Shown piece after piece: positions 29,314 to 49,388 of a stretch of DNA of 53,765 nucleotides (within the stretch, counting starts at the first letter, position 1; each line of letters starts with the position of its first letter). Below the pieces are notes generated by a model. The model was not told the origin of the DNA, made no database searches, and saw only the letters and a program-made list of their open reading frames with translations. The position numbers and the translations under genes were made by a program. Source of the DNA: an uncultured Candidatus Saccharibacteria bacterium (GTDB lineage: Bacteria; Patescibacteriota; Minisyncoccia; Phycocordibacterales; CAIZLB01); NCBI GenBank assembly GCA_964367655.1, contig CAYIYJ010000001.1, forward strand, positions 1 to 53,765, given 5' to 3'.

Positions 29314-29394
29314 GCCGAAGTGGCGGAATGGTAGACGCACACGACTCAAAATCGTGCGGGGCAACCCGTGAGAGTTCAAGTCTCTCCTTCGGCA
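29314..29394 (+). tRNA. tRNA-Leu(CAA)
   Basis: Manual cloverleaf: acceptor GCCGAAG/CTTCGGC, anticodon arm CACGA-CTCAAAA-TCGTG, a long variable arm (CGGGGCAACCCGT) and T arm GAGAG-TTCAAGT-CTCTC. CCA is not encoded. Confidence 0.9.
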
Positions 29395-29438
29395 CAAACA
29401 ACAAAAACACCCTTGAAAGAGGGTGTTTTTGTTGTTTG
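29395..29438. terminator. 19-bp perfect inverted repeat after tRNA-Leu
   Basis: CAAACAACAAAAACACCCT-tgaaag-AGGGTGTTTTTGTTGTTTG. Confidence 0.75.
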
Positions 29439-29652
29439 GCACGAAGAGCAAGTGCTAATGCACTTGCGTGGGAGACTTGAAGGGCTTTGTGATGTTTTTG
29501 AGGATTCGAAGAATCTGAAAAAACCACAAAGGCGTACTGGTCCTGTAAGGACCAAGTCTCTATACTTTGGCATAAAAAATTCCCCAGAGGCATCCTAAGT
29601 CTTTGTTAGACCTTGGAATACCTCTGAGGATTGAACGGACTCTGTTGTCTCC

Positions 29653-38060: not shown

Positions 38061-38090
38061 CCCCTCTCGTGCTAGCTCTAATTGGCGGGC
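38061..38090 (-). repeat. junction repeat, short copy
   Basis: The + strand reads CCCCTCTCGTGCTAGCTCTAATTGGCGGGC, near-identical over the 23-nt CTCGTGCTAGCTCTAATTGGCGGG core to 45911-45933 and similar to 44054-44076. Confidence 0.7.
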
Positions 38091-38118
38091 ATCACTTACC
38101 TATTTAATCCTTTCACCA

Positions 38119-39300
38119 TTAAAACAATCCAACAAACTGATCTCCATATACATGCTTCAGAGAAGCATACAATTCCTTTGCTGTACAACCTATACCCTCA
38201 ATAACAACCTGTCCGTAATCAGGATGATTAACCACATGCCTAGATTCTATTAATTGAGGATGTTGTGCACCTGCATCTAAAAATAATGGATAGTAGGTAC
38301 TTAGAATATCATCTTCTTCAAGTTGAAGCCTAGCACAGTATAGTTCACCTGCATAAGGATGATGATCTTGCTGTCGACTATCTTTATTTACCGTCCAAAA
38401 GAGGGTACCGTCCGGATCAAGTGGATCAAAATCTTCACTATCTATTATCAATCTAAATTTAGTACCACTGTCAATTTTATCAAGAACTAAAGAAAGTTTC
38501 TCCATATCAGATCTTTCAACCTGTTCAGAATACGGCTGAGGAGAACCTAAAATATTTGTAGACCAGTAGTGAACATTTTTAAGACTATCGATGTTAATCT
38601 TTCCAATATCAAGCTTAGAATGTGGTAGCTGATCCATATCTCCTAATAACCACCCCTGCTGTATCTCAGTTATTTGATTCTCCCTTAGCTCCCTAATATT
38701 TCCCCCTATTCTTTCTCCTGGAATCACTCTTTTTTCAAATTGAAGCCCTCCAATATCTGCCCATGGATCTTTTTTAACTCGATGTAATTCCATAGACATA
38801 ACCCCTGACTCTAAACCTTCTTGTTGCGGAATAACATCAAATATTTCCGTATCCTCAACAGACAGCTTCTCAGCTACAAAAGTACACCACTCTGACAAAT
38901 CTACACCTACAGGAATTGAAGAAAAAAAATCATATAAATCATGATATCCTGTTTTACCCAAACCAGAACTTCTCTCTTCAATCTCATCGAATATTTTACC
39001 CAACAAAGTACCATGTAGTCTTGTGGGAACATAATCAGTAAAACACATAGTCTTGATACTTTCTGCCAAAGCATCTAACGCTCTTCCTTTCTCCCTCTCA
39101 TTTAAAAAAAGAATCTGCCGCCGATCTGTATTTTCACTAGTACTAATTTTATGAATTCTAGCTTCTCGATACCGTTGATATTCAGAGCCGACACCGAGAG
39201 AAAAGATCTGTTTATGTAAATTTATTCTTTGCGTATGGTCAGATTCTGATCTTAGACGCTTAGCAAGATCATTTCGAAACTCCTGATGCATATTTTCCAT
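38119..39300 (-). CDS. orphan protein, 393 aa
   Basis: Long ORF with TGgTATAAT 7 nt upstream of the ATG. No family recognised. Confidence 0.65.
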   Translation of the reverse strand: MENMHQEFRNDLAKRLRSESDHTQRINLHKQIFSLGVGSEYQRYREARIHKISTSENTDRRQILFLNEREKGRALDALAESIKTMCFTDYVPTRLHGTLLGKIFDEIEERSSGLGKTGYHDLYDFFSSIPVGVDLSEWCTFVAEKLSVEDTEIFDVIPQQEGLESGVMSMELHRVKKDPWADIGGLQFEKRVIPGERIGGNIRELRENQITEIQQGWLLGDMDQLPHSKLDIGKINIDSLKNVHYWSTNILGSPQPYSEQVERSDMEKLSLVLDKIDSGTKFRLIIDSEDFDPLDPDGTLFWTVNKDSRQQDHHPYAGELYCARLQLEEDDILSTYYPLFLDAGAQHPQLIESRHVVNHPDYGQVVIEGIGCTAKELYASLKHVYGDQFVGLF

Positions 39301-39396
39301 ATTTAATATTATACCACTAAAAGAGATACCTGTAGTACCTTGACTGTATCAGCAGGTACTCAATTAAGCCACTGTCTGCCTCTCCTCCTGTAAAAC

Positions 39397-40173
39397 TCAT
39401 ACTTTATTTAGCTGTTCAACCAATTGATGTAATCGATTTATTAATTCATTTTGGAAAGATGCTACCTTGTCTTCTCCTGGAGCTTGCATAATAACTTCAG
39501 GCTCCTCCTGGCTAGCTTGCCGTATAGATATAACAATATTATTCAGAAATCGATACCCTTCTGCGCCATCAAAGGCACTCATTAATTCATTTATTTTTAC
39601 ACGTAGCATGCTTATCGCAGCTTCATCAAAACCCTTTAATTGCTTGGCATTGTTAGCAAGACGATACTCGCTTAATGGCTCCCAGAAACCTCCAAACCAA
39701 TCAAAATCAAAAAACACATGCCCGTTTTCCCCTACCCTAATATTGTGAAGAGGATCCTCATCGTTTGGCAAAAGATGGTCCGTATCGTGAAAAACATTTG
39801 TCAGTATGAATATATCTGTCTTTAGCGGCATCAAAAGATCCGAGCGTATGTCCCTAACGCTTTCATTTTTTATAGATAGCACATTTGAATAAAACCATTT
39901 TTGTCCACCTGTATTTTCAACACAGACAACATCCGACACTGGAATGATGCCCTTGAGCATTCTCGTCAGAAGCATTTGATCCGCGCCACGTTCGAAGCCC
40001 TCTCCGCCATATAATTTTCGGCCAGTTGAATCCTCGACCATATCGAGAGGGATCCGACTTTCCAGTGCCCGCGGACCAGAATCACCTTTTACCGTCAGCT
40101 CTTCGACTCGAATAATTGAAGACAGACCGTCTTCTTGTTCTGTATTTTTTGATTTCGGAAATTCTTGAGACAT
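39397..40173 (-). CDS. orphan protein with a possible kinase-like catalytic signature
   Basis: 258 aa. TDHLLPN (DxxxxN) is followed 18 residues later by DFD, reminiscent of the kinase/APH catalytic and Mg loops. This is a weak motif-level call only. TGgTACAAT lies 7 nt upstream of the ATG. Confidence 0.6.
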   Translation of the reverse strand: MSQEFPKSKNTEQEDGLSSIIRVEELTVKGDSGPRALESRIPLDMVEDSTGRKLYGGEGFERGADQMLLTRMLKGIIPVSDVVCVENTGGQKWFYSNVLSIKNESVRDIRSDLLMPLKTDIFILTNVFHDTDHLLPNDEDPLHNIRVGENGHVFFDFDWFGGFWEPLSEYRLANNAKQLKGFDEAAISMLRVKINELMSAFDGAEGYRFLNNIVISIRQASQEEPEVIMQAPGEDKVASFQNELINRLHQLVEQLNKV

Positions 40174-40196
40174 ATCGAATATTGTACCAGACTTAT

Positions 40197-40250
40197 CTCT
40201 CGAGTGCCCGAATGGGATACCTCACTCGGGCAGATCAAAAAGTGACAAAC
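40197..40250 (-). repeat. junction repeat, variant copy
   Basis: It shares tcaaaaagtgacaaa with 46166-46180, cactcgggc with the other copies, and gaatgggatacc with 45191-45202. Confidence 0.55.
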
Positions 40251-42563
40251 TTACAACTGACGAGTAAAGGGATTATCAGTCATAGGTTTATATTCGTCAA
40301 CCAGAGGATCTCCTTTATACCTTACCTGATTAAAGCCAACAGCCACACAGTCATCACCGCCAGTATGACCATCAACTAACACGCCGTCTACCATTCTCAA
40401 ATATTTTAACCCTGACTCACCCTGAGTTGGATCTTCCACAATAAACATTGTACCTTCATATGTAGACATATCGTTCTTCAGCAATGAATCAACCTCATCC
40501 TTTTCAAGAGGGCGGAGTCCTAATTTGTTAAGGTTAGACAAAACCTCCTCACTAGAGAACTCTTGATATTCTTCATAATCCCCTGCAATATTTTGAGCCT
40601 CTGTGATACAAAATGGCAAGGTGAGAACTTCACAAGTTTTACCACCTGTAGTAAATGTCCTGGATCTAATTACAGATTGTATCGCTGTTCTCAAACCACA
40701 GTCAAAAAACTTAATTGATGCATTCGACGGAAAAGTACTAAAATAATTCCTACGGAACTTTGAGAATTCAGTCTTAAGGACAGGGCCTCTATGCAGTAGT
40801 GTTTTAGTGTCAGGACTCAAAGGATCTAAACCACAAAAAGAAACTGAATTTCTTTCTGCTTCATCTAATTTTACCCCCCTGAAGATTTCAGGTAAAACCA
40901 ATCGTGATGCTGTAGATAAATTTTGCAGGTCAAGTATGCCGTGAATTTTTTTTGGCAAAACAATATCAGATTCGTCTTCGGTACAAATTGACAGCCCCCC
41001 AACCTCCTCTGACAAAGTAAGATCTTTTACAGATTCAACTTCTAAAATTAACATCCTGCCCACTTTTTGTGGAAGTACAATACTTTCCAAAGAACCTTTT
41101 TTATGCAAATGGACATCACTTTTCGCATATTTCGGCAAGACTGGCCTACTATCAAAATCCCAGTTATCCTCGTCCAAATCGACAGTAGTGTAGATGACGT
41201 CTTTCGCAATCAAATCTTCAGATGAAAGGGCAATTTGATTTTGATCACAGTCCAAAGCTTTTGATAATTCTGTTCTCAGACCAAGTCTGACCGCCAATAT
41301 TTCTGATATTCGCGGATCAGTCTCATATCCAAAACCTTGAATTGGCCCATTGAGTTCAAACAAAAACTCAACTTCATCGAAACTTAATTTCGAATCACAT
41401 ACGATCTTTTCTTTGGTATTTTTATCAACCTTAAAACATTTTTCATAAATCGCCGTCAACATTTTCATATCACGATCAGCTTTCTCATATTGTTCCGCAC
41501 CATCCAGTTTAGAGTAATGTTCTTTCGCGATATCAATCAGCACAGGCTCAAGAGCTTGACCGGGATCAACCCCTCGTATCTCAGCAACGTTTTGCACATT
41601 ATTATAATTTTCCATTCTCACTGCAATTCGAGGTTCAGTTGGAATACCAGCCTTGTTTTTTGTATAGAACACATGAAAATCACCAGAAGCAAGTTGTCCT
41701 TCTGCTGATCCTGAAGCTGTACACCAACCCGTACCCTTACCCTTAAGCCCTCTTTCTAGTTCTCTATAATCAGAACCTTGAGGATATATCACCCATTCTC
41801 CCTCTAGTGATTCACGATCAAGATTTCCAGCACATTCAACTTGAGCAAAGGCATACAGTTTGGAAAAGTCTTTTGAGGCAAGTCTTTTATCAAGCTCTTT
41901 TTCTAATTCATCCTTTCTCTCAGTATTCAATTCTAAACCCTCTTTCTCGAGTTCACCTATCAGCGCTCTGAATACGAACCTTAAAGATTCTGCATTTGCC
42001 TCTGGAAAAGGAGCAACTGTCTTTTCTGTTCTTGTAGAATAGCTCATGCTACCACGATTGAATTGACCCATCTTTTTAAGCGACCGGACAACGTAATATT
42101 TAAACCATATCGGATAACCTTCTCCTTCTTTGAGATATGTAATCCACGATTGCAAAGATCTTTTCTGGATTTGAGCCTTCTCAATTATTGATTCCTTGTA
42201 TCGTTTAAAAATTTCTTCACCATCTAACCTTTTGATATCACCACCTCTACCCTGATCGATAGCTATTTTCTTTTCAGATTCATATAAGTCTTGCGCAAGT
42301 GATCTCACAAGATCTTCATCTTGAACATTCAATATATAATCATCGGTGATTGATTCCTCAATCATCTTTACGACAGACGGTCGTTTTTTCATGATCCTAT
42401 CAAGACCTCTGAGATACCGATCGATAGTTGCATGCTTAGATTTTTTTTGAGGCAAATGCTCTTTTTTGGTTGTATATTCAGCCAAAGTCTGAGCTTCTTC
42501 AGATGTATGTATATCTTGGAATTTTTGTCCAAGGAATTCTGTGCCGTTGAAGGATTCTTTCAT
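40251..42563 (-). CDS. large orphan protein, 770 aa
   Basis: Long uninterrupted ORF with a KGTGWCTASGSAEGQLASGDFHVFYT segment. No family assigned confidently. TGaTACAAT lies 9 nt upstream of the ATG. Confidence 0.7.
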   Translation of the reverse strand: MKESFNGTEFLGQKFQDIHTSEEAQTLAEYTTKKEHLPQKKSKHATIDRYLRGLDRIMKKRPSVVKMIEESITDDYILNVQDEDLVRSLAQDLYESEKKIAIDQGRGGDIKRLDGEEIFKRYKESIIEKAQIQKRSLQSWITYLKEGEGYPIWFKYYVVRSLKKMGQFNRGSMSYSTRTEKTVAPFPEANAESLRFVFRALIGELEKEGLELNTERKDELEKELDKRLASKDFSKLYAFAQVECAGNLDRESLEGEWVIYPQGSDYRELERGLKGKGTGWCTASGSAEGQLASGDFHVFYTKNKAGIPTEPRIAVRMENYNNVQNVAEIRGVDPGQALEPVLIDIAKEHYSKLDGAEQYEKADRDMKMLTAIYEKCFKVDKNTKEKIVCDSKLSFDEVEFLFELNGPIQGFGYETDPRISEILAVRLGLRTELSKALDCDQNQIALSSEDLIAKDVIYTTVDLDEDNWDFDSRPVLPKYAKSDVHLHKKGSLESIVLPQKVGRMLILEVESVKDLTLSEEVGGLSICTEDESDIVLPKKIHGILDLQNLSTASRLVLPEIFRGVKLDEAERNSVSFCGLDPLSPDTKTLLHRGPVLKTEFSKFRRNYFSTFPSNASIKFFDCGLRTAIQSVIRSRTFTTGGKTCEVLTLPFCITEAQNIAGDYEEYQEFSSEEVLSNLNKLGLRPLEKDEVDSLLKNDMSTYEGTMFIVEDPTQGESGLKYLRMVDGVLVDGHTGGDDCVAVGFNQVRYKGDPLVDEYKPMTDNPFTRQL

Positions 42564-42587
42564 AATATGGGTATTGTATCAAATTAA

Positions 42588-42718
42588 GCTCTCATACGCT
42601 CTTGTTGGCGGGCCGACTCGTGCTAGAACCGTGGGCGGTTAAGGTCTGTAATGTCCGTTGGGGATATTGTAACATAGCTGACTCGACCCCAATCGGGCGT
42701 GTCAAAAAGTGATACAGG
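42588..42718 (-). repeat. junction repeat, full copy A
   Basis: + strand blocks: ttggcgggccgaCTCGTGCTAGaaccgtgggcggttaag ... gtccgtt ... tcgaccccaatcgggc ... gtcaaaaagtga. Confidence 0.8.
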
Positions 42719-42779
42719 TTGAGGTACTAAGAGTTATAGTTAAATGTCACTTTCTAAGAAACAAAACTGTCCTTTCCTA

Positions 42780-43397
42780 TTAGAACTTCACAGAGCCTTT
42801 AATCTTGTCCAATGCTTCCTGCGATATGCCGATTTTGGTAGCTGGTTCGAAGAATCCGACTACACGAACAGAAGGTACGATAATCATTTCTGCGCCAGTG
42901 TCATTCGAATAGTAGATTCCATTATACTCACTCAGCATCTTTAAGGTATAAGCCGAATTTTTCTCTGGGTTCGCACTGTCATATGCTTGCTGGTTGTCAT
43001 ATCGCACAAGAGAAAGAACTTCTTTGCCGTTGAAATATACAGTTAAACCTTTGGCATCCTTATGTGTTCTTGAAAAATTCGTTGTATATGTAAAATTATC
43101 CGGTACAGTTACAGAAAAGCTATTTACTGAAACAACCTTTGTCTGAGCTGATGGTGTTGTAGAGACCTTTGTAGGTGCGACAATTTGGTTTACAGAGGGG
43201 TCTGTCTGACCAGGAGTGAGAGTAGAAGAGGCTGAACTATTATTCTGTGTATCACGCGTATCACTCACAGTTTCAGAATTCACCATGACATTATCACCAT
43301 TTTGCTGCATATACCAGTATGTACCTCCGATTCCTAGCACAAGAGCAATGATGACTGCGACAATGATTCCAGTAAAACCATTTTGTTTATTTTTCAT
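42780..43397 (-). CDS. secreted/anchored orphan protein with a pilin-like leader lacking Glu5
   Basis: I prefer the start MKNKQNGFTGIIVAVIIALVLG (43397), 9 nt after TGaTATAAT. Confidence 0.6.
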   Translation of the reverse strand: MKNKQNGFTGIIVAVIIALVLGIGGTYWYMQQNGDNVMVNSETVSDTRDTQNNSSASSTLTPGQTDPSVNQIVAPTKVSTTPSAQTKVVSVNSFSVTVPDNFTYTTNFSRTHKDAKGLTVYFNGKEVLSLVRYDNQQAYDSANPEKNSAYTLKMLSEYNGIYYSNDTGAEMIIVPSVRVVGFFEPATKIGISQEALDKIKGSVKF

Positions 43398-43443
43398 AAT
43401 AATCAAATTATATCATTAAATTAAATATACCACTACTATATAA

Positions 43444-43484
43444 CCCCTCTCAGGTGCCCTTGTTGGCGGACCTACTCGTGCAGG
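43444..43484 (-). repeat. junction repeat, short copy
   Basis: The + strand reads cccctctcaggtgcccttgTTGGCGGAcctaCTCGTGCAGg, i.e. only the tRNA-3'-like block and the CTCGTGC block. Confidence 0.6.
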
Positions 43485-43488
43485 TAAA

Positions 43489-44040
43489 TTAACCTAAAAT
43501 ACTCTTCAGATCTAATTCCAGATTTTTGAATAGAATCTTGTTCTTGGCATGTCCTGTAGGGTTAACGGGTGACGGGTGAAAAATTGGAAAAACTTTATAT
43601 GTTTTATTTCCGAACTTAATATTCAAAATTTCTCCCATAACTAAGTTTTGATCAATTATTTTCGATAAAATACTTGTAGTCTGTACGCCTAAAATTATCA
43701 ATAATTCATATTCTTGATCTTTAATTTGTTCTAAAAAAATTGGCCAACATTTTTTACCACAAGATTCAAGCTCTGTTCGTTTTGAAACAAAACACTTTGA
43801 TAGTTCTGTAAATCCACTATTTTCGACAGAAAGACCAAAAGGTTCTAAAAGTTCATTTAACCTCTTTCCTGTTGGAAGTATTTTTCCATCAGGGCGATAA
43901 CAAGCCTTACCAGATAAAATCCAACCATTTGGTGCAGGAGACTCTCCAACAATTAACAACTTTTCTCCTTTTCCCACACCTAGCTGATGAAACTTTTCCA
44001 AAGGAAATTTTTTTATATCGTGACAAACATGATTTTTCAT
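43489..44040 (-). CDS. uracil-DNA glycosylase superfamily protein (family 4/5-like)
   Basis: 183 aa with LLIVGESPAPNGW (motif A-like GE.P.) and FHPSPVNP (motif B HPSP). Confidence 0.6.
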   Translation of the reverse strand: MKNHVCHDIKKFPLEKFHQLGVGKGEKLLIVGESPAPNGWILSGKACYRPDGKILPTGKRLNELLEPFGLSVENSGFTELSKCFVSKRTELESCGKKCWPIFLEQIKDQEYELLIILGVQTTSILSKIIDQNLVMGEILNIKFGNKTYKVFPIFHPSPVNPTGHAKNKILFKNLELDLKSILG

Positions 44041-44050
44041 ATATTTATTA

Positions 44051-44167
44051 TGTCTCGTACTAGCTCTAATTGGCGGGTCGATTCGGGCTGGAACCGTGGG
44101 TGGTTAAGCCCTGCTTAGTCCGTTTTGGATATTTCCATAATACCACATCGACCCCACTCGGGCAGCC
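44051..44167 (-). repeat. junction repeat, full copy B
   Basis: + strand blocks: ctcgtactagctctaaTTGGCGGGtcgattcgggctggaaccgtgggtggttaag ... gtccgtt ... tcgaccccactcgggc. Confidence 0.8.
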
Positions 44168-44179
44168 TAGATTAATGAT

Positions 44180-45127
44180 TTATAGACCGCCTTGCAATCC
44201 AATTTCCGGAAAAGAATTCGAGTCTATTTCCAAATCAGAAATATACTTATGCATGCACGAGAGCATAACTTTTTTTCTCCATTCCCATCGGGCCGAGTAC
44301 ACCTCATCCTTTTCATACGAGAGTGCCCATATCGATTTCAGGAAAATAAAATCATTTTTGAAATCAGAAATATTAGAAATATTGTATTTTTTACACAACA
44401 TGTCAATTTGATCAAAGTAGGACGTAAGTTGTTCATTTGAAAAATCCCATAATTTCATCGTTCCTGAGCCGTTTGGTTTAGGGTGATCCCAAAATTTTTG
44501 GAATACCACCCCTGTAACAATGTCATATCCAAATGGCATCATGACACGAGTTTCAAAATCAATAACTCCACCTTCCATTATATTAAAAGGGGTGAAATCT
44601 CCGTGACTAATCACCACAGGAAGTAAGTTTGTACGTTTTTTAAATTTTTCCATCGCCGTGTTTATAAGATCTTCGGGAAGATCCGGATTCTCGAGTAGCA
44701 CATTTCCTAGTTGAATCGCTTCGACCAACTGAATTGTTTCTAACTCGCGGTTTGAGTTATCAAGCTGAGCAACAGCAAATAACTTTACAGTCTCAGTGAA
44801 CTTTTTAAAAAGATCATCATTTATTTTTCCTATATCCCTGTAATCCGAGGCAAACATTTCACCAAACGTCTTGTTGCCAACCGATGTCTCAACAAAATAT
44901 GAAACTTCTCCATCTATTTCACCCCTCTCTACAGGTGCAGGGATCGGAAAACCAACATGGTACAATTTCTGTGCAAAATCTGCTTCATTTTGAATCTCAT
45001 CTTTTCCACCAGTTCTCAGAATGTACTTCGAATCTTGCGAGCGATAAACAGCGCCCGTCCTTACCAAAGCCCCTCTGTTCTTGATGAGGATCCATTCATC
45101 TAAATTGATCGGTTTTTGATATGACAT
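44180..45127 (-). CDS. aminoglycoside/choline-kinase-like phosphotransferase (APH family fold)
   Basis: ISHGDFTPFNIMEGGVIDFETRV matches the HGDxxxxN ... IDxE pattern. I prefer the start MSYQKP (45127) because the track extension runs into the repeat. Confidence 0.65.
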   Translation of the reverse strand: MSYQKPINLDEWILIKNRGALVRTGAVYRSQDSKYILRTGGKDEIQNEADFAQKLYHVGFPIPAPVERGEIDGEVSYFVETSVGNKTFGEMFASDYRDIGKINDDLFKKFTETVKLFAVAQLDNSNRELETIQLVEAIQLGNVLLENPDLPEDLINTAMEKFKKRTNLLPVVISHGDFTPFNIMEGGVIDFETRVMMPFGYDIVTGVVFQKFWDHPKPNGSGTMKLWDFSNEQLTSYFDQIDMLCKKYNISNISDFKNDFIFLKSIWALSYEKDEVYSARWEWRKKVMLSCMHKYISDLEIDSNSFPEIGLQGGL

Positions 45128-45185
45128 TGAATAATTAATTATATAGTAAATTAGATGGAAATAGCTATTCCTAAAGATAATATGC

Positions 45186-45323
45186 ACCTGAATGGGATAC
45201 CCCACAGAGGCGCCTTAATTGGCGGGCGCATTCGTGCTAGAACCGTGGGGAGCAGGGCCTGTAACGTCCGTTTCGAGCATTGTGGTATGTCGCGGTCGAC
45301 CCCACCCGTGCGGGTTGAAAATC
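45186..45323 (-). repeat. junction repeat, full copy C
   Basis: + strand blocks: cctgaatgggatacc ... ccttaaTTGGCGGGcgcaTTCGTGCTAGaaccgtgggg ... gtccgtt ... tcgaccccacccgtgcggg. Confidence 0.8.
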
Positions 45324-45325
45324 TA

Positions 45326-45877
45326 TTAAATTTGAGACTGTTGTTTTTCTCTAAATTCCTCTGACATCTTTGCCAAAGAATCAAAATCTGTGGCACCAAT
45401 ATCCCAAGAGTCCAACCCTTCTGCAATTATCACTCGCCCATCTTGTTCGATATTTGCATTTTCATTTCTTGCAGATGGATCGATCACTTTCCATTCAACC
45501 CCATTTTGTATTCCAACATACACATGTCCATTGATAGGACGTCCTCCATTCTTAAGCCACGTAAGATCAAGGGTTTCGATATATTTTGTTGGAATACTTA
45601 ATGCCCGGGCAAGTGCTATAAATACAAGTGCATCATCAGTACAACCTGTTACGTATCCATCGGTAATAATTTGAGATGCTGTCCTCTTTCGAAACACTTC
45701 ATTTTTATTTTCAGTTTGATATCTGAGAGTTCTTAAAAACTGAACCATCTGATGAATTTTCTGTTCGGTTGTTCCCTCGAAGGAACGAGCAATTTCAAGA
45801 ACTGCGGGAGTAATCACCGTCTGCTTCCCGGATTCTAAATATTTTTCAAAATTTTCTTGTTTTGGTGATTCTATCAT
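45326..45877 (-). CDS. transglutaminase-like cysteine protease-fold protein
   Basis: GYVTGCTDDALVFIALARALSIPTKYI (Cys), NGHVYVG (His) and KVIDPS (Asp) form a Cys-His-Asp arrangement. Confidence 0.65.
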   Translation of the reverse strand: MIESPKQENFEKYLESGKQTVITPAVLEIARSFEGTTEQKIHQMVQFLRTLRYQTENKNEVFRKRTASQIITDGYVTGCTDDALVFIALARALSIPTKYIETLDLTWLKNGGRPINGHVYVGIQNGVEWKVIDPSARNENANIEQDGRVIIAEGLDSWDIGATDFDSLAKMSEEFREKQQSQI

Positions 45878-45890
45878 TTAATTTTATGAT

Positions 45891-45926
45891 AGCACGAGAC
45901 GACCACCTCTCTCGTGCTAGCTCTAA
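45891..45926 (-). repeat. junction repeat, promoter-proximal part, with a 9-bp hairpin
   Basis: AGCACGAGA-cgaccacctc-TCTCGTGCT (45891-45918), then agctctaa leading into TTGGCGGG. Confidence 0.65.
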
Positions 45927-46077
45927 TTGGCGGGCCGACTCCGACTCGAAGCTTACAGCTTCAGTACACCTTTGCGGTTTGACTCGGACAAACGTCCTCG
46001 CAAACATCGCAAAGCTTTTCGAGTCGGGGAAAAGCTACGCTTTTCCTAACTCTAACATATTGTGGTAACTGCGGGCC
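45927..46077 (-). repeat. 151-bp ORF-less structured unit, copy 1
   Basis: Identical to 49172-49322 apart from 2 mismatches. It is bounded by GGCCCGC at both ends and contains TTCGAGTCGGAGTCGGCCCGCCAA (read on the minus strand). Confidence 0.85.
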
Positions 46078-46189
46078 TATTCGTGCTAGAACCGTGGGTG
46101 GTTAAGACCTGTATAGTCCGTTTCAAGGATTGTAGCATGTCTTAATTGACCCCACTCGTGCGGGTCAAAAAGTGACAAAAGTGACAGTT
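46078..46189 (-). repeat. junction repeat, full copy D (tRNA-like end interrupted by the 151-bp unit)
   Basis: + strand blocks: (gcgggcc)taTTCGTGCTAGaaccgtgggtggttaag ... gtccgtt ... ttgaccccactcgtgcgggtcaaaaagtgacaaaagtgac. Confidence 0.8.
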
Positions 46190-46618
46190 TTAGCTCTTTT
46201 CAAGAAGGCCCTTAATCCCCTTCAAAAACTTCTCACCGTCAGATCTTTTAACTTTGTTTCTCATATCCATCACTTTATCGCGATGACAGCGTCTCAATTC
46301 CTTACCACTACCACAATAACAAGGCCAGTGGCCTTTCACTTTTTTACAAGTGTGATATTCCAGAAATTTTATAATCCCATATAAGTCACTAATACCGAGT
46401 TCTTCCTGATAAAATTCGAGATTACCTTTTATGTTATGACTTCTGGCTTTCATAGTCGGGTTGCCACTTGTTGAATCATAATCAATTTGCCAAACAAAAA
46501 AGCTTTTCACACACGTCTCAATGAATTCAAGAATATTATTTTGAGATGAATAATGCTTATACTCTTCATCTTTCAAGAACAGGCACGCATTTCCGTTCGG
46601 GTAGAAGTGTCTACACAT
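46190..46618 (-). CDS. SEC-C-motif-containing protein
   Basis: 142 aa with HWPCYCGSGKELRRCH, a SEC-C-type metal-binding motif. An in-frame stop lies 9 nt upstream of the ATG. Confidence 0.6.
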   Translation of the reverse strand: MCRHFYPNGNACLFLKDEEYKHYSSQNNILEFIETCVKSFFVWQIDYDSTSGNPTMKARSHNIKGNLEFYQEELGISDLYGIIKFLEYHTCKKVKGHWPCYCGSGKELRRCHRDKVMDMRNKVKRSDGEKFLKGIKGLLEKS

Positions 46619-46895
46619 ACCACCCTATTTCAAACCGTGATCTGAAACATTCTCGATATGTAGATACTGGATTCGGCAGCAGGAAACCTTGATCTCCCGC
46701 ATATTCGCCTATTACCGGGTATCAGCATATCATAATTTATATAAGGGAACACTTATGCAAAGCAACAAAAATAGCCCAAGCACGACATGTGCAAGGGCTG
46801 GAAGTTTTTTAACGCTGTATCTTCCCGAGCGTTTGGCGATAAATCGCCGAAGAGCAAAGTTCAAAGTGACCAAGGAGGTCACAGTGGCAAAGCTC

Positions 46896-47597
46896 TTAGG
46901 GCTTACTTGCGAGAGACAACGCAGGACTGTAGGCACTACGGTCGTAGTCGAGCCAGCTGTAGCTCCAGCCCCACGAACCGCCACCCTGACGATCGAGGTA
47001 CAGGGCACCACGGCGGCCATCGGAGCGCCGCAGAGTGGTACCCAGCAGCTCGAACCAGGTGATACCGAGGGTGTCGAGCCAACGGAGCGTCTTTTGCCCC
47101 TCCTCCTCAAAAAGCGCCTGACCGATGCGAGCATCGGCTTGGATCGCTTTGGCGATGAGGCGGGCGCGCTTTACTTCGCTCGTGACGACTGTTTCCGACC
47201 CTTCGAGTCCTGTCAGGAAGTTTGCTTCTTTGGTCATGCCTCTGAAGTCCACTTCCTTGAGGGCAAGCGATCGCTTGTCCTGTTCCTCGTCACCCTTGAG
47301 ACCGTCACCTTTGGCAGGGCCTTTCCAGATCGTCCAGCCGCTACCCACGAACGTGGAAGGGTTGAATGTTGCGGGAAGGACCAACGGGCCGGTGGGCGGT
47401 TCGACGACAACTTTCACAGGCTCGGGAAGAGCGGGGACCTCATACCCATTGATATGGGCGGTGATCCAAGCGTTGAACTCGGCCGGCGGCAGATCGAGAA
47501 TGAGTTGGGTTTTGTCTTTGTCCCATCCGCTTCGTTCCCCAGCGTTGAGGAAAAGGGCTGCGAATTGGCGATGTTGTTTTTCAGTGGCTTGAGCCAT
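46896..47597 (-). CDS. GC-rich orphan protein, likely horizontally acquired
   Basis: 233 aa from MAQATEKQHRQF; the track ORF extends to 47693. The coding body has ~38 G+C per 60 nt by my counts at 46921-46980 and 47341-47400. The composition is plausible for a protein and is Trp-rich. The hairpin GTGACC-tcct-TGGTCAC follows the stop codon. The overlapping + strand ORF reads as Arg/Ala/Thr-rich low complexity. Confidence 0.55.
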   Translation of the reverse strand: MAQATEKQHRQFAALFLNAGERSGWDKDKTQLILDLPPAEFNAWITAHINGYEVPALPEPVKVVVEPPTGPLVLPATFNPSTFVGSGWTIWKGPAKGDGLKGDEEQDKRSLALKEVDFRGMTKEANFLTGLEGSETVVTSEVKRARLIAKAIQADARIGQALFEEEGQKTLRWLDTLGITWFELLGTTLRRSDGRRGALYLDRQGGGSWGWSYSWLDYDRSAYSPALSLASKP

Positions 47598-47914
47598 TGC
47601 GTAGTCTGGGTTACTAAATCCTTCAAAGTGGTACGTTCCAAGATAGGCTCTTGGAAAATGACGTATCACTCCGAATGTTTTTCGCCTCAGCATTTCACAT
47701 CTTATAAAATAAGATTCAAAATGCTGAAGCGAATTCGCAAGTTATTTCAAGGTACTTTATGCTATATATTATACACCACAAATGCCATATATGTCAATAT
47801 GCGGGTTTTGGGCTAAATTAGCCTGAAAAATAAAGGTATTTTGACGCGACCACACTACGTATTCCCTATTCTGCATAGCTATGCAGGGTTTACAGGTCTG
47901 TCATTAATTAATAT

Positions 47915-49024
47915 ATGCAACAGCTCGGTATAAATGCCCAGATACGGATGGCGGAGATAGTGCCACAAGCAAGAGTGAAGTACTGCCTCTATGCAAGAAA
48001 ATCTACAGAATCGGATGAGAAACAAGCTCTATCAATCGAATCGCAAGTAAAGGAAATGCTGCAGATTGCCGAACGAGATGGTTTGGAAATAATTGATATT
48101 CGAAGAGAATCCCACTCAGCCAAAGATTCAGGCCAACGTCCTGTATATAAAGAATTGTTGGAAGATATACGAAGACAAAGATTCAATGGAATTCTGACTT
48201 GGGCGCCAGACAGACTTTCCAGAAATGCGGGCGATCTTGGATCAGTCGTAGATTTGATGGATCAAGGATTATTATCTGAAATTAGAACCTATGGACAACA
48301 GTTCAGAAATTCACCTAATGAAAAGTTTCTACTAATGATTCTCTGCTCTCAGGCAAAATTAGAGAACGATAATAAGAGCATAAACGTGAAGCGTGGGATG
48401 AGAACTCGTTGCGAAATGGGATTGTGGCCAGGGAGAGCACCGACTGGATATCTGAGTGAAAAGAGGATAGATAGGAAATGTCAGGTATACATAGATCCAG
48501 AGCGAGGCCATATCATCAAGAGCATATTTGAAAAGGTTGCATATGAAAAGTGGACTGGCAGAAAAATAATGCACTGGCTCAAATTCGATCTGAATTTCAG
48601 GACGGCTTGCGGACATAAGCACATGAGTCTGGGTAATATCTACACCCTGCTCGAAAATCACTTCTATTATGGAGTATTTGAATACCCTTCAAAAAGCGGA
48701 AACTGGTACACAGGCAAACATGAACCCCTCATAACAAAAGAATTATTCGAACTAGTGCAATCTCAGATCAAAAGCCAAATCCTTCGCACTGGAGAGCCTA
48801 AAGAGTTCGCGTTCACCAAGCTCATGGCTTGCGGATTATGCGGATCAGGTATCTGTGCAGATGAGAAATTCAAGAAGCTGAAAGACGGATCGGTTAACAG
48901 GCATATCTACTACGCCTGTACCAGAGCAAGAAATCCGGACTGCAAGCGAGAGTACATAAATGAACCCGATTTGATAGAACAATTCATAAGACTCATGGAT
49001 GAGAGTTCATATAAATCATACTAA
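47915..49024 (+). CDS. large serine recombinase, probably C-terminally truncated
   Basis: Resolvase-type catalytic N-terminus (YARKSTESDEKQALSIESQ ... RLSRN), a recombinase domain, and a zinc ribbon (CGLCGSG ... YYACTRARNPDC). It stops ~25 aa after the last Cys. That is where large serine recombinases normally continue with a coiled coil, and all three frames are closed downstream. Confidence 0.8.
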   Translation: MQQLGINAQIRMAEIVPQARVKYCLYARKSTESDEKQALSIESQVKEMLQIAERDGLEIIDIRRESHSAKDSGQRPVYKELLEDIRRQRFNGILTWAPDRLSRNAGDLGSVVDLMDQGLLSEIRTYGQQFRNSPNEKFLLMILCSQAKLENDNKSINVKRGMRTRCEMGLWPGRAPTGYLSEKRIDRKCQVYIDPERGHIIKSIFEKVAYEKWTGRKIMHWLKFDLNFRTACGHKHMSLGNIYTLLENHFYYGVFEYPSKSGNWYTGKHEPLITKELFELVQSQIKSQILRTGEPKEFAFTKLMACGLCGSGICADEKFKKLKDGSVNRHIYYACTRARNPDCKREYINEPDLIEQFIRLMDESSYKSY

Positions 49025-49082
49025 CAGAAATACATAACCCTTAACAGCTTCCCTAACACAATAAAAAATGTGCGGTTTGAGC

Positions 49083-49171
49083 TCAGTAACCTTAGGTTCT
49101 AAGCCCGAGTGGGGTCGAAATTCAGACCTTCAAAATATCCTTAAAAACTAGCCTATTCGTGCTAGCACGAG
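49083..49171 (+). repeat. junction-repeat fragment in inverted orientation, with a 14-nt perfect palindrome
   Basis: GCCCGAGTGGGGTCGA (49103-49118) reads on the + strand here, whereas it reads on the minus strand in every other copy. It is followed by cctatTCGTGCTAGCACGAg, with the palindrome at 49157-49170. Confidence 0.7.
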
Positions 49172-49322
49172 TTGGCGGGCCCACTCCGACTCGAAGCTTA
49201 CAGCTTCAGTATACCTTTGCGGTTTGACTCGGACAAACGTCCTCGCAAACATCGCAAAGCTTTTCGAGTCGGGGAAAAGCTACGCTTTTCCTAACTCTAA
49301 CATATTGTGGTAACTGCGGGCC
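49172..49322 (-). repeat. 151-bp ORF-less structured unit, copy 2, abutting tRNA-Trp
   Basis: See copy 1. Its right-hand GCGGGCC (49316-49322) is the 3' acceptor end of the tRNA. Confidence 0.85.
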
Positions 49323-49388
49323 CACTCCGACTCGAACGGAGAATTGCGCGTTTGGAGTGCGATGTTTTACCATTGAAACTATAGGCCC
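49317..49388 (-). tRNA. tRNA-Trp(CCA), with a weak anticodon stem
   Basis: Manual fold, 72 nt: acceptor GGGCCTA/TGGGCCC, D arm GTTT-CAATGGTA-AAAC, anticodon loop CTCCAAA and T arm CTCCG-TTCGAGT-CGGAG. The anticodon stem TCGCA/CGCGC has only 3 Watson-Crick pairs. CCA is not encoded. Confidence 0.65.

Follow-up and report, generated by a model that had tools for sequence, protein, structure and literature searches.

In Dehalococcoides, genomic islands at the ssrA gene carry a CcrB-like serine recombinase (DsiB) and repeats of about 20 bp of the ssrA end, with insertion at the T-loop, and islands lacking an integrase have been read as cis-mobilizable elements gathered by accretion (PMC3146451). 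These islands are the closest documented system to the locus studied here, which lies in a contig of 53,765 nucleotides from an uncultured Candidatus Saccharibacteria bacterium (GenBank CAYIYJ010000001.1; the whole stretch is called the window below). In the window a 151-bp unit that contains no gene is found twice, once at the 3' end of the tRNA-Trp gene and once at the pseudo-tRNA end of a junction repeat (JR), and the two copies enclose a module with a large serine recombinase gene. Common to both systems are tandem islands downstream of a tRNA-like gene, a direct repeat of about 20 bp of the 3' end of that gene, insertion in the T-loop and a large serine recombinase at one edge. Unlike in Dehalococcoides, the target is tRNA-Trp in Saccharibacteria, the recombinase belongs to a different family of about 440 aa, the cassettes carry single genes and end in JRs of about 113 bp with a tRNA mimic shortened by 6 nt, and the unit, an insertion of 141 bp, is gene-less, has a covarying core and has paralogues at other tRNAs without a recombinase nearby. 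We find it moderately probable that the unit is a minimal, gene-less element resembling cis-mobilizable elements in the 3' part of tRNA-Trp, that the displaced tRNA end provides a second landing site, and that the duplication arose by accretion or recombination (or in the assembly). No description of the tRNA-Trp locus in Saccharibacteria was found in the literature.

Cis-mobilizable elements (CIMEs) and accretion-mobilization have been defined, and relatives of ICESt1 and ICESt3 are known in streptococci (PMC5704250). Like CIMEs, the unit is flanked by att-type sequences, lacks recombination and transfer genes and stands in tandem with an integrase-bearing element at the same site, and composite excision and integration would explain the repeated att-bearing segments. 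CIMEs differ in being kilobase-sized, decayed integrative conjugative or mobilizable elements with tyrosine integrases and conjugative helpers, and they have no counterpart of the hairpin core. In the Tycheposons of Prochlorococcus successive integrations take place at one tRNA (bioRxiv 10.1101/2020.12.28.424599). Shared with these are older elements pushed outward, partial tRNA repeats and degraded remnants, and a minority of Tycheposons use large serine recombinases; they differ in being multi-gene elements with replication modules, and no miniature, structured member without an open reading frame (ORF) has been described among them. A further comparison is offered by the 178-bp repeats at tyrT of Escherichia coli, ORF-poor units downstream of a tRNA that each end in a copy of about 19 nt of the tRNA 3' end, stand in tandem at one locus and release a structured RNA from the tRNA operon transcript (RtT, Rfam RF00391). 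RtT differs from our unit in that Rfam scans gave no match in sequence or structure, and in that it is not known from several tRNAs with cognate ends, nor known to be linked to cassette arrays or recombinases.

The unit at tRNA-Trp

The two copies of the unit, both read on the minus strand, lie at 45927-46077 and 49172-49322 (3245 bp from start to start) and align without gaps over 151 bp with two mismatches, G/C at 45937/49182 and C/T at 45967/49212, exactly as given in the original prediction from which this work started. That prediction also placed the start of copy 2 in the true end of the tRNA and the start of copy 1 in a pseudo-tRNA end, and both placements were borne out. Copy 2 opens with the GGCCCGC of tRNA-Trp(cca) itself (49317-49388, minus strand; found by ARAGORN and scoring 48.2 bits with the Rfam tRNA model), whereas copy 1 opens with the GGCCCGC at the end of a JR (46070-46182, about 113 nt) that continues with CAA in its other copies. 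The 151 bp consist of the 7-bp shared core, a unique body of 120 bp, a 21-bp tRNA repeat and CAA. The insertion proper is thus 141 bp (body and repeat, with a repeat period of 141 nt), and the copies match over 151 bp because copy 1 is also preceded by GGCCCGC and also followed by CAA. The earlier argument that an identity of this length is not a serine recombinase att site was correct, as the shared candidate crossover core is only GGCCCGC.

The last 21 nt of tRNA-Trp (49316-49336, TTCGAGTCGGAGTGGGCCCGC) form the proximal copy of a direct repeat that spans from the first T-loop base to the base past the discriminator. Allowing at most one mismatch, three occurrences of this 21-mer were counted in the window (45930, 49175 and 49316) against an expectation of 0. 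Since the tRNA end is copied in the insertion, tRNA-Trp is regenerated, and the displaced end (T') together with CCA is found 120 bp downstream. The gene is intact despite the adjoining unit, judging by its score with the tRNA model. The unit is flanked by the intact tRNA and by a direct repeat of the 3' segment of that tRNA in a displaced position, as in the Islander-type definition of genomic islands in tRNA genes; no integrase gene lies inside the element, and its 120-nt body has no credible ORF. The view of the unit as non-coding, as delimited by a repeated tRNA end and as regenerating the tRNA was upheld. Two ORFs drawn over the unit (45862-46068 and 49206-49373) were judged spurious, as their frame is not conserved in a second species (contig L007, see below). 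CCA is not encoded by tRNA-Trp in the window, where the sequence beyond the gene is CAGTTACC; in lineages without the array (L029, L031 and L036) the native flanks diverge right past GGGCCCGC and CCA is likewise unencoded. Among the loci compared, tRNA-Trp encodes CCA only if a cassette leader follows it, not with the unit or the native flank. Two non-standard pairs are marked in its anticodon stem in the Rfam alignment.

In copy 2 the shared core (49316-49322) is followed by the body (49196-49315), and past the core the copy runs AGTTACC...GAAGCTGTAAGCTTCGAGTCGGAGTGGGCCCGCCAA. Within the unit lie a first hairpin (hp1, 49273-49291, GGAAAAGC-GTA-GCTTTTCC), a 5' arm CCGACTCGAA (49263-49272), a 45-nt second hairpin (hp2, 49215-49259), the linker GTATACTG (49207-49214), a third hairpin (hp3, 49193-49207, GAAGCT-GTA-AGCTTC), T' (49175-49195) and CCAA (49172-49175), all on the minus strand. 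Copy 1 has the same layout on the same strand (hp1 46028-46046, 5' arm 46018-46027, hp2 45970-46014, hp3 45948-45962), with T' at 45930-45950 bearing the G-to-C variant. Both copies end in ...AAGCTTCGAGTCGGAGT(G/C)GGCCCGCCAA, and downstream of copy 1 CCAA is joined to TTAGAGCTAGCACGAGAGAGG, the leader of a transglutaminase-like cassette. A promoter-like match (TTGTCC-17-TATACT, 49208-49236, minus strand) is directed from copy 2 toward the downstream cassette, and copy 1 has TGTACT at this place. It is the single promoter-like match, at 9/12 positions, inside copy 2, and promoter and terminator scans of the region gave counts at shuffle level.

Comparison of contexts was made among related contigs, taken as those with the same 54-aa L33-like protein or the transglutaminase cassette, all of which are metagenome contigs. 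In L001 the order ClpB, tRNA-Tyr, L33, tRNA-Trp is followed by one unit and the transglutaminase, APH and UDG cassettes, which is the window minus 3245 bp, while L002 has the tRNA and the unit followed by different cassettes. In L006 the tRNA (...GGGCCCGCCAA) is joined directly to the module end CTCGTGCTAGCACGAATAGGC without a unit, and in L022 a different JR ending in GGCCCGC precedes the unit and the transglutaminase cassette. The second species, L007, with about 80% identity over the ClpB region, has a full unit at tRNA-Trp at 92.7% identity and another, 5'-truncated copy (99% identical over 112 nt) that replaces the JR at the end of a 681-aa cassette. Of the species-representative genomes only one carried the unit; it is labelled Candidatus Saccharibacteria and is about 80% identical over the ClpB region. 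By its alleles, copy 2 of the window is like L002 and L007 and copy 1 like L001. The window, L001, L018, L020, L021 and L022 all have the unit together with the same downstream cassette, and tRNA-Trp is found without the unit in L006, where it abuts the module, and in other lineages (L010, L016 and L025-L037). Taken over all joints, the left halves (the tRNA end T, T' and JR) are combined with the right halves (the unit, type-1 and type-2 leaders and the recombinase-element end) in nearly all ways around the invariant GGCCCGC, unit-less natives at T being the exception; the joint of T' with the module was seen in the window only. As had been proposed, the unit behaves as a discrete block in changing junction contexts (L001, L002, L006, L022 and L007), and its copies in other contigs show that it is more than this one local duplication.

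Relatives at other tRNA genes and the folded core

A point missed in the original prediction is that the unit has paralogues at other tRNA genes, including one in the window. Downstream of tRNA-Leu(caa) (29314-29395) a paralogous unit occupies 29396-29572 on the plus strand, detected by a hidden Markov model of the unit (29474-29558, E = 3.5e-8) and by the covariance model (64 bits, rising to 101 bits upon one iteration). At its start are a terminator-like hairpin (29396-29437) and a second hairpin (29448-29467), after which come a 5' arm GAGACTTGAA (29472-29481) that is the exact reverse complement of the tRNA-Leu T-loop and T-stem, an hp2 (29485-29531), the conserved linker GCGTACTG, an hp3 (GGTCCT-GTA-AGGACC, 29539-29553) and a degenerate copy of the tRNA-Leu 3' end (29553-29572). 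Its hp2 and hp3 share homology with their counterparts in the Trp unit and show compensated changes, and when folded independently the Leu unit has the architecture of the Trp unit (z = -10.3) and also an outer stem that mimics the acceptor stem. Its setting is ordinary chromosome, with a DUF305 gene, tRNA-Leu, the unit and miaA in this order and neither cassette array nor recombinase.

Further members were found downstream of tRNA-Tyr in L011 and L012 (51 bits, E = 1e-11 in L011), in L035, where the 5' part of a diverged Trp unit (37 bits) has an arm GGACTCGA matching the T-stem CCTAG of that lineage, and in L024, where the family core lies antisense to tRNA-Glu (26 bits, E = 7.6e-5). The repeat of the cognate tRNA is 21 nt in Trp, at least 9 in Leu, 11 in Tyr and 45 in Glu, and in the Trp and Leu units an inverted 10-mer arm is complementary to the cognate T-loop and T-stem. 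In general a unit is made up of an identity block by which the tRNA is restored, in many cases a new hairpin of terminator type, the body and, last, the original end of the tRNA in its displaced position. Such an anatomy bears the usual marks of site-specific integration into tRNA genes, shrunk to a gene-less 141-270 bp, and the unit belongs to a small, previously undescribed family of ORF-less units lodged in several tRNA genes. The family is a variant absent from the libraries searched in this analysis; the cassette stack and the recombinase element are a new representative of a known type. The finding is real and more general than the original prediction supposed, with the function and mobility of the unit as inferences.

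Two inserts deserve description. The tRNA-Glu(ctc) locus of L024 (17800-18064) has an ORF-less insert of about 220 nt with a 45-nt repeat from the anticodon region to the 3' end; it opens with a terminator-like hairpin and contains the antisense family core named above, and on the same contig a recombinase element with DruA and DUF87 cargo lies at tRNA-Trp. In L011 (13960-14176, also L012 and L013) a different ORF-less insert of about 214 bp sits at the identical point of tRNA-Trp and is unrelated to the unit, only analogous to it. It has a 19-nt repeat and a GC-rich interior (z = -6.8) and opens with a 21-bp perfect hairpin whose outer arms, GAAAAGC/GCTTTTC, resemble hp1 of the unit.

The three hairpins proposed from the letters were confirmed. 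For the minus-strand RNA of the unit the minimum free energy is -61.2 kcal/mol (z = -6.3, 200 dinucleotide shuffles), and z was -6.45 for single-stranded DNA and -4.35 for the plus strand. In addition, a closing helix CCGACTCGAA/TTCGAGTCGG, absent from the original account, surrounds hp2 and hp3, and its folded form has the duplex sequence of the T-loop region of the tRNA gene. Across an alignment of nine sequences, which was fitted to the model and whose counts should be read with this in mind, 98.3% of helix cells were paired and 20 of 39 pairs were altered on both sides. None of 500 shuffles came up to this result, and slid controls gave 0-5 pairs. Within Trp units alone, hp3 has three compensated pairs, GAAGCT/AGCTTC having become GCTCCT/AGGAGC in L007. 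Structure-preserving substitutions are therefore present. The conserved and covarying core of the family consists of the long hairpin, a single-stranded YRUACWG linker and the short hairpin with a conserved UGUAA loop. A helix 1 of the Trp unit (GGCCCGC/GUGGGCC) was excluded from the model, as it rests on the GGGCCC palindrome and the G-to-C variant breaks its pairing in three copies; the outer stem of the Leu unit is comparable to it. No match to the unit was found in Rfam 15, RtT and tRNA-like families included, where only the three tRNAs of the window reached gathering scores, and permissive scans of the Trp and Leu unit types gave hairpin matches at chance level only.

Two further classes were tried and rejected. 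The unit is not a tRNA pseudogene, as homology links the Trp and Leu cores with each other and not with their tRNAs. Miniature inverted-repeat transposable elements are marked by terminal inverted repeats, short target-site duplications and many dispersed copies, whereas there are three copies of the unit family in 53.7 kb, all abutting tRNA genes (no family copy away from tRNAs was found in the window), and the flanking repeat is a tRNA segment of 9-45 nt.

For the conserved core the most likely roles are those of a cis-acting module for recombination or transfer, or of an RNA. The core adjoins the identity block in circular permutation, where cis-acting recombination sites are expected. The competing view, to which we give tentative and clearly lesser credence, is that the unit is first of all a gene or module for a structured non-coding RNA, expressed by read-through from the tRNA-Trp promoter or from a promoter of its own, with mobility and duplication incidental. 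The fold would then sequester the duplicated tRNA tail (for example against misfolding of the pre-tRNA) or act as a small RNA, and this is partly compatible with the mobile element favoured here. Strong folds in both unit types, covariation in all helices, the conserved single-stranded linker and loop, four G-U against two A-C helix cells, and an arm that tracks the cognate tRNA in Trp, Leu and L035 all agree with an RNA, as do the tRNA-Trp promoter just upstream and the common orientation of all cassettes. However, the G-U to A-C count is too small for a choice of strand, neither the promoter and terminator scans nor Rfam gave a convincing match, and tRNA and core are kept apart by a long terminator-like hairpin in the members at tRNA-Leu, tRNA-Tyr and tRNA-Glu. 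These hairpins and the antisense orientation of the L024 member argue against obligatory co-transcription with the tRNA.

The recombinase module and the cassette stack

The module between the two units occupies 46078-49171 (3.1 kb). Its recombinase gene (47915-49024, plus strand) encodes 369 aa with Resolvase, Recombinase and zinc ribbon domains in Pfam. The protein has at least 8000 homologues, and the best 120 of them are 73-96% identical, mostly about 440 aa long, and come from Parcubacteria, Saccharibacteria and other bacteria of the candidate phyla radiation (CPR), with one labelled Woesearchaeota; an exact match to the whole protein was not found. It aligns to residues 1-362 of homologues of 430-450 aa, DNA homology ends at 49000, and about 80 C-terminal residues have been lost. 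With 96% amino-acid and about 81% nucleotide identity to its nearest relatives, it is to be read as a truncated copy of a strongly constrained protein.

At the unit copy 2 side the module has a conserved recombinase-element end (49097-49171, plus strand), 91-96% identical in L010, L011, L015 and L016, which is a weak inverted JR-like sequence (E = 4e-4 to 2e-2). The JR 3' end and the element end together give the dyad CTAGCACGAGT-CGGCCCGCCA-ACTCGTGCTAG (CTAGCACGAGT-N10-ACTCGTGCTAG, centred on GGCCCGCC), which we infer to be the attP, with a putative crossover within GGCCCGC. Att sites of large serine recombinases are imperfect dyads of some 40-50 bp about a central dinucleotide and do not depend on long identity. 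In loci with a full-length recombinase (L010, L016, L011-13 and L024) tRNA-Trp, ending in ...GGGCCCGCCAA, is followed by the conserved end, the cargo, which consists of metal and redox genes or of defence genes such as DruA, and, at the far edge, the recombinase gene; L015 differs in having a JR, not the tRNA, in front of the element. GGCCCGC flanks the unit on either side and also marks both ends of the recombinase elements (window, L010, L011, L015 and L016), and in having an att-type core on both sides and no recombination or transfer genes the unit shows two of the features by which CIMEs are defined.

The remainder of the module holds a SEC-C motif protein gene (46190-46618, minus strand) and a GC-rich ORF of 265 aa without a Pfam match (46896-47693, minus strand). 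The latter lies in a GC-rich island (46689-47816; 51% against about 39%) and is overlapped by a long antisense ORF (46689-47816, plus strand). This island is found at 100% identity in L017, which matches 984 bp of the module.

Downstream of tRNA-Trp and co-oriented with it, a stack of single-gene cassettes runs over 38082-46182 (minus strand), with transglutaminase-like, APH and UDG genes and unknowns of 208, 770, 258 and 393 aa as cargo. The cassettes are parted by JRs of about 113 nt or JR fragments ending in (G)GCCCGCCAA (45219, 44070, 43463, 42605, 40219-40249 and 38082), and stack-type JRs are also present in L001, L007, L015, L022 and L026. The JR at 46070-46182 (minus strand) closes the SEC-C cassette and the module, and unit copy 1 follows immediately on its pseudo-tRNA end ...CTAGCACGAATAGGCCCGC. 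In general the JR ends as ...GGTTCTAGCACGA.T.GGCCCGCCAA, and the leader that comes next is of one of two types, TTAGAGCTAGCACGAGAG.. or CAAGGGCGCC..GGGGTATCCCATTC..; read off the sequence, this end is the tRNA end minus six bases, CGAGTCGG[AGTSGG]CCCGCC.

Two junctions depart from this form. At 40219 (40219-40249) the JR 5' part is fused to the type-2 leader palindrome (GAGTGAGGTATCCCATTCGGGCAC) as a hybrid, and at 43463 (43447-43481) the JR is reduced to its last 35 nt or so. Such hybrid and shortened junctions suggest, by their sequence, further points of recombination or deletion, such as GTGGGGT. A JR-like sequence was also detected in a Parcubacteria contig (L023, VMEP01000001.1, 2613-2723; nhmmer E = 3e-14), about 7 kb from a recombinase homologue, beside CBASS-like (CD_NTase, Cap15) and phage-like genes and without a tRNA within 10 kb; the JR is therefore conserved beyond Saccharibacteria.

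Origin of the second copy

Given that T, T' and the JRs all share the 7-bp core GGCCCGC, recombination at this core would join any left half to any right half, and the likely catalyst would be the large serine recombinase family whose elements abut it. The unit would duplicate the landing site and travel as a passenger, and the second copy would have arisen when the recombinase module became joined to the unit, with no self-transposition of the unit. Three routes may be envisaged. A composite circle of unit, module and JR could integrate between tRNA and unit; two successive core recombinations could take place; or homologous exchange could occur inside the module between variants with the module at T and at T'. 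An element entering the core between the tRNA and a resident unit would create JR...GGCCCGC joined to AGTTACC. As this joint would be made by any element entering at the core, the context of copy 1 needs no separate insertion of the unit. Excision of the unit as a circle is predicted to give the joint ...GGAGTGGGCCCGC/AGTTACC and the scar joint tRNA...GGGCCCGC/CAA-leader, and a composite circle would carry JR...GGCCCGC/AGTTACC together with T'/CAACTCGTGC. A full-length recombinase homologue (e.g. P0001) would be expected to recombine tRNA-Trp/unit with JR/CAACTCGTGCTAG.

Several observations weigh against this reading. The window pairs the left joint of T' and module with the right joint of JR and unit, and a single simple integration cannot give both; of the two simple variants, one (tRNA/module) exists in L006. 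No recombinase is assignable to the insertion of the unit itself, and the recombinase of the window is probably inactive, being about 80 residues short. A repeat starting in the T-loop is, as Williams reportedly described in 2002, typical of tyrosine integrases. Canonical large serine integrases do not recombine attP with attL, and the stacking of cassettes seems to need just this. If the unit were a decayed scar, one would not expect 20 compensated pairs to persist, nor an arm that tracks the cognate tRNA, which indicates that the core has a function outside this reading; the compensated helices likewise argue against simple decay from an autonomous element. Searches for relatives point in the same direction. 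A metagenome scan with the pattern of the closing helix returned only two chance matches, in unrelated high-GC coding sequence. Scans of viral contigs with three unit segments, the module joint and a degenerate core pattern gave no real copy; the 20 viral matches to the core pattern all failed the covariance model and had no tRNAs nearby. Blastn against phage and plasmid records gave no match to the unit, no autonomous parent element was found in genome, metagenome, viral, phage or plasmid searches, and neither a circular junction nor an empty site from the same strain was recovered.

An assembly chimera is an unlikely explanation, and it would account for the conflicting joints directly. Two variants sharing the 3.1-kb module, one with tRNA/unit/module-JR-CAA/cassette and the other with tRNA-CCAA/module-JR/unit/cassette, would have been threaded into one contig, each genome having one unit. 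The left and right module junctions do belong to two different simple integration products, L006 proves that the tRNA/module variant exists in a related sample, the joint of T' and module is attested by the window alone, and the related records are all metagenome contigs. Against it, direct evidence of misassembly was not found, L017 matches 984 bp of the module at 100%, and tandem accretion with repeated att-bearing segments is documented in comparable systems (PMC3146451, PMC5704250).

We also regard it as improbable that an actively mobile unit of 141-151 bp was inserted twice independently, into the real tRNA end and into the JR pseudo-tRNA end, as the original prediction suggested. The copies start exactly past GGCCCGC in two left contexts, with a third in L022, they differ at two positions with alleles like those of different contigs (L002 and L007 for copy 2, L001 for copy 1), and a near-identical partial copy occurs in a species that is only about 80% identical. 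However, the JR/unit joint arises automatically from any element inserted between tRNA and resident unit, the unit stays with the same downstream cassette in the window and five other contigs, the family is found in 53.7 kb only beside tRNAs, and by established DNA mechanics a double-stranded circle of 141 bp is a poor recombination substrate. L001 with a resident unit and no module, L006 with the module and no unit, and L022 with another JR before the unit and the same cassette favour accretion or composite recombination instead, and this part of the prediction was not sustained.

A bolder proposal, which we likewise hold to be improbable, is that the units are miniature mobile elements of a new kind, with an attachment site that is active when folded from a single strand. 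The attP of CTX phage and the attC of integrons rebuild the target duplex in a folded hairpin. By analogy, the arm complementary to the T-arm may pair with the element's own copy of the tRNA end and so rebuild the duplex of the crossover region in a hairpin, and the core of hp2 and hp3 may recruit a host or trans-acting recombinase. The element may enter naturally competent, episymbiotic Saccharibacteria as a single strand, be retargeted by swapping both arms and seed cassette stacks; in a remoter variant, its RNA form may guide recombination through target-identical and target-complementary segments.

It is very improbable that the unit is an attI- or attC-type site recombined as a folded single strand and that the cassettes move in integron style, and membership among integron cassettes was largely refuted. 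The likeness lies in short, ORF-less "empty" units with an imperfect palindromic fold at the head of or within a co-oriented array of single-gene cassettes, in repeats of about 110 nt, in the strong single-stranded DNA fold and in the helix CCGACTCGAA/TTCGAGTCGG that reproduces the T-loop duplex of the tRNA gene, whereas no tyrosine recombinase, including the IntI type, was found among the 30 window ORFs scanned, there is no attI and no GTTRRRY or R/L box organisation, the shared core is GGCCCGC followed by CAA in a site that mimics a tRNA end, the associated enzyme is a serine recombinase, and the JRs were rejected as folded attC-like sites, since the single-strand stability of eight of them showed no excess over shuffles (z -1.8 to +1.5) and only the unit folds.

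It seems that the mobile unit favoured here, together with its neighbours, offers a view of gene exchange in CPR bacteria, which have tiny genomes and whose routes of gene exchange are poorly known. The locus is a hot spot at tRNA-Trp where single-gene cassettes with defence, metal and modification genes as cargo are stacked beside a CPR-wide recombinase family, and where a gene-less element of 141 bp duplicates the landing site and is related to structured units at other tRNAs. In case the core is a cis-acting recombination or transfer signal, the unit would indicate how little is required for mobility and could possibly supply a new large serine recombinase with compact sites. Should the core be an RNA instead, it would represent a new tRNA-linked RNA family, and either way the covariance model permits a direct survey.

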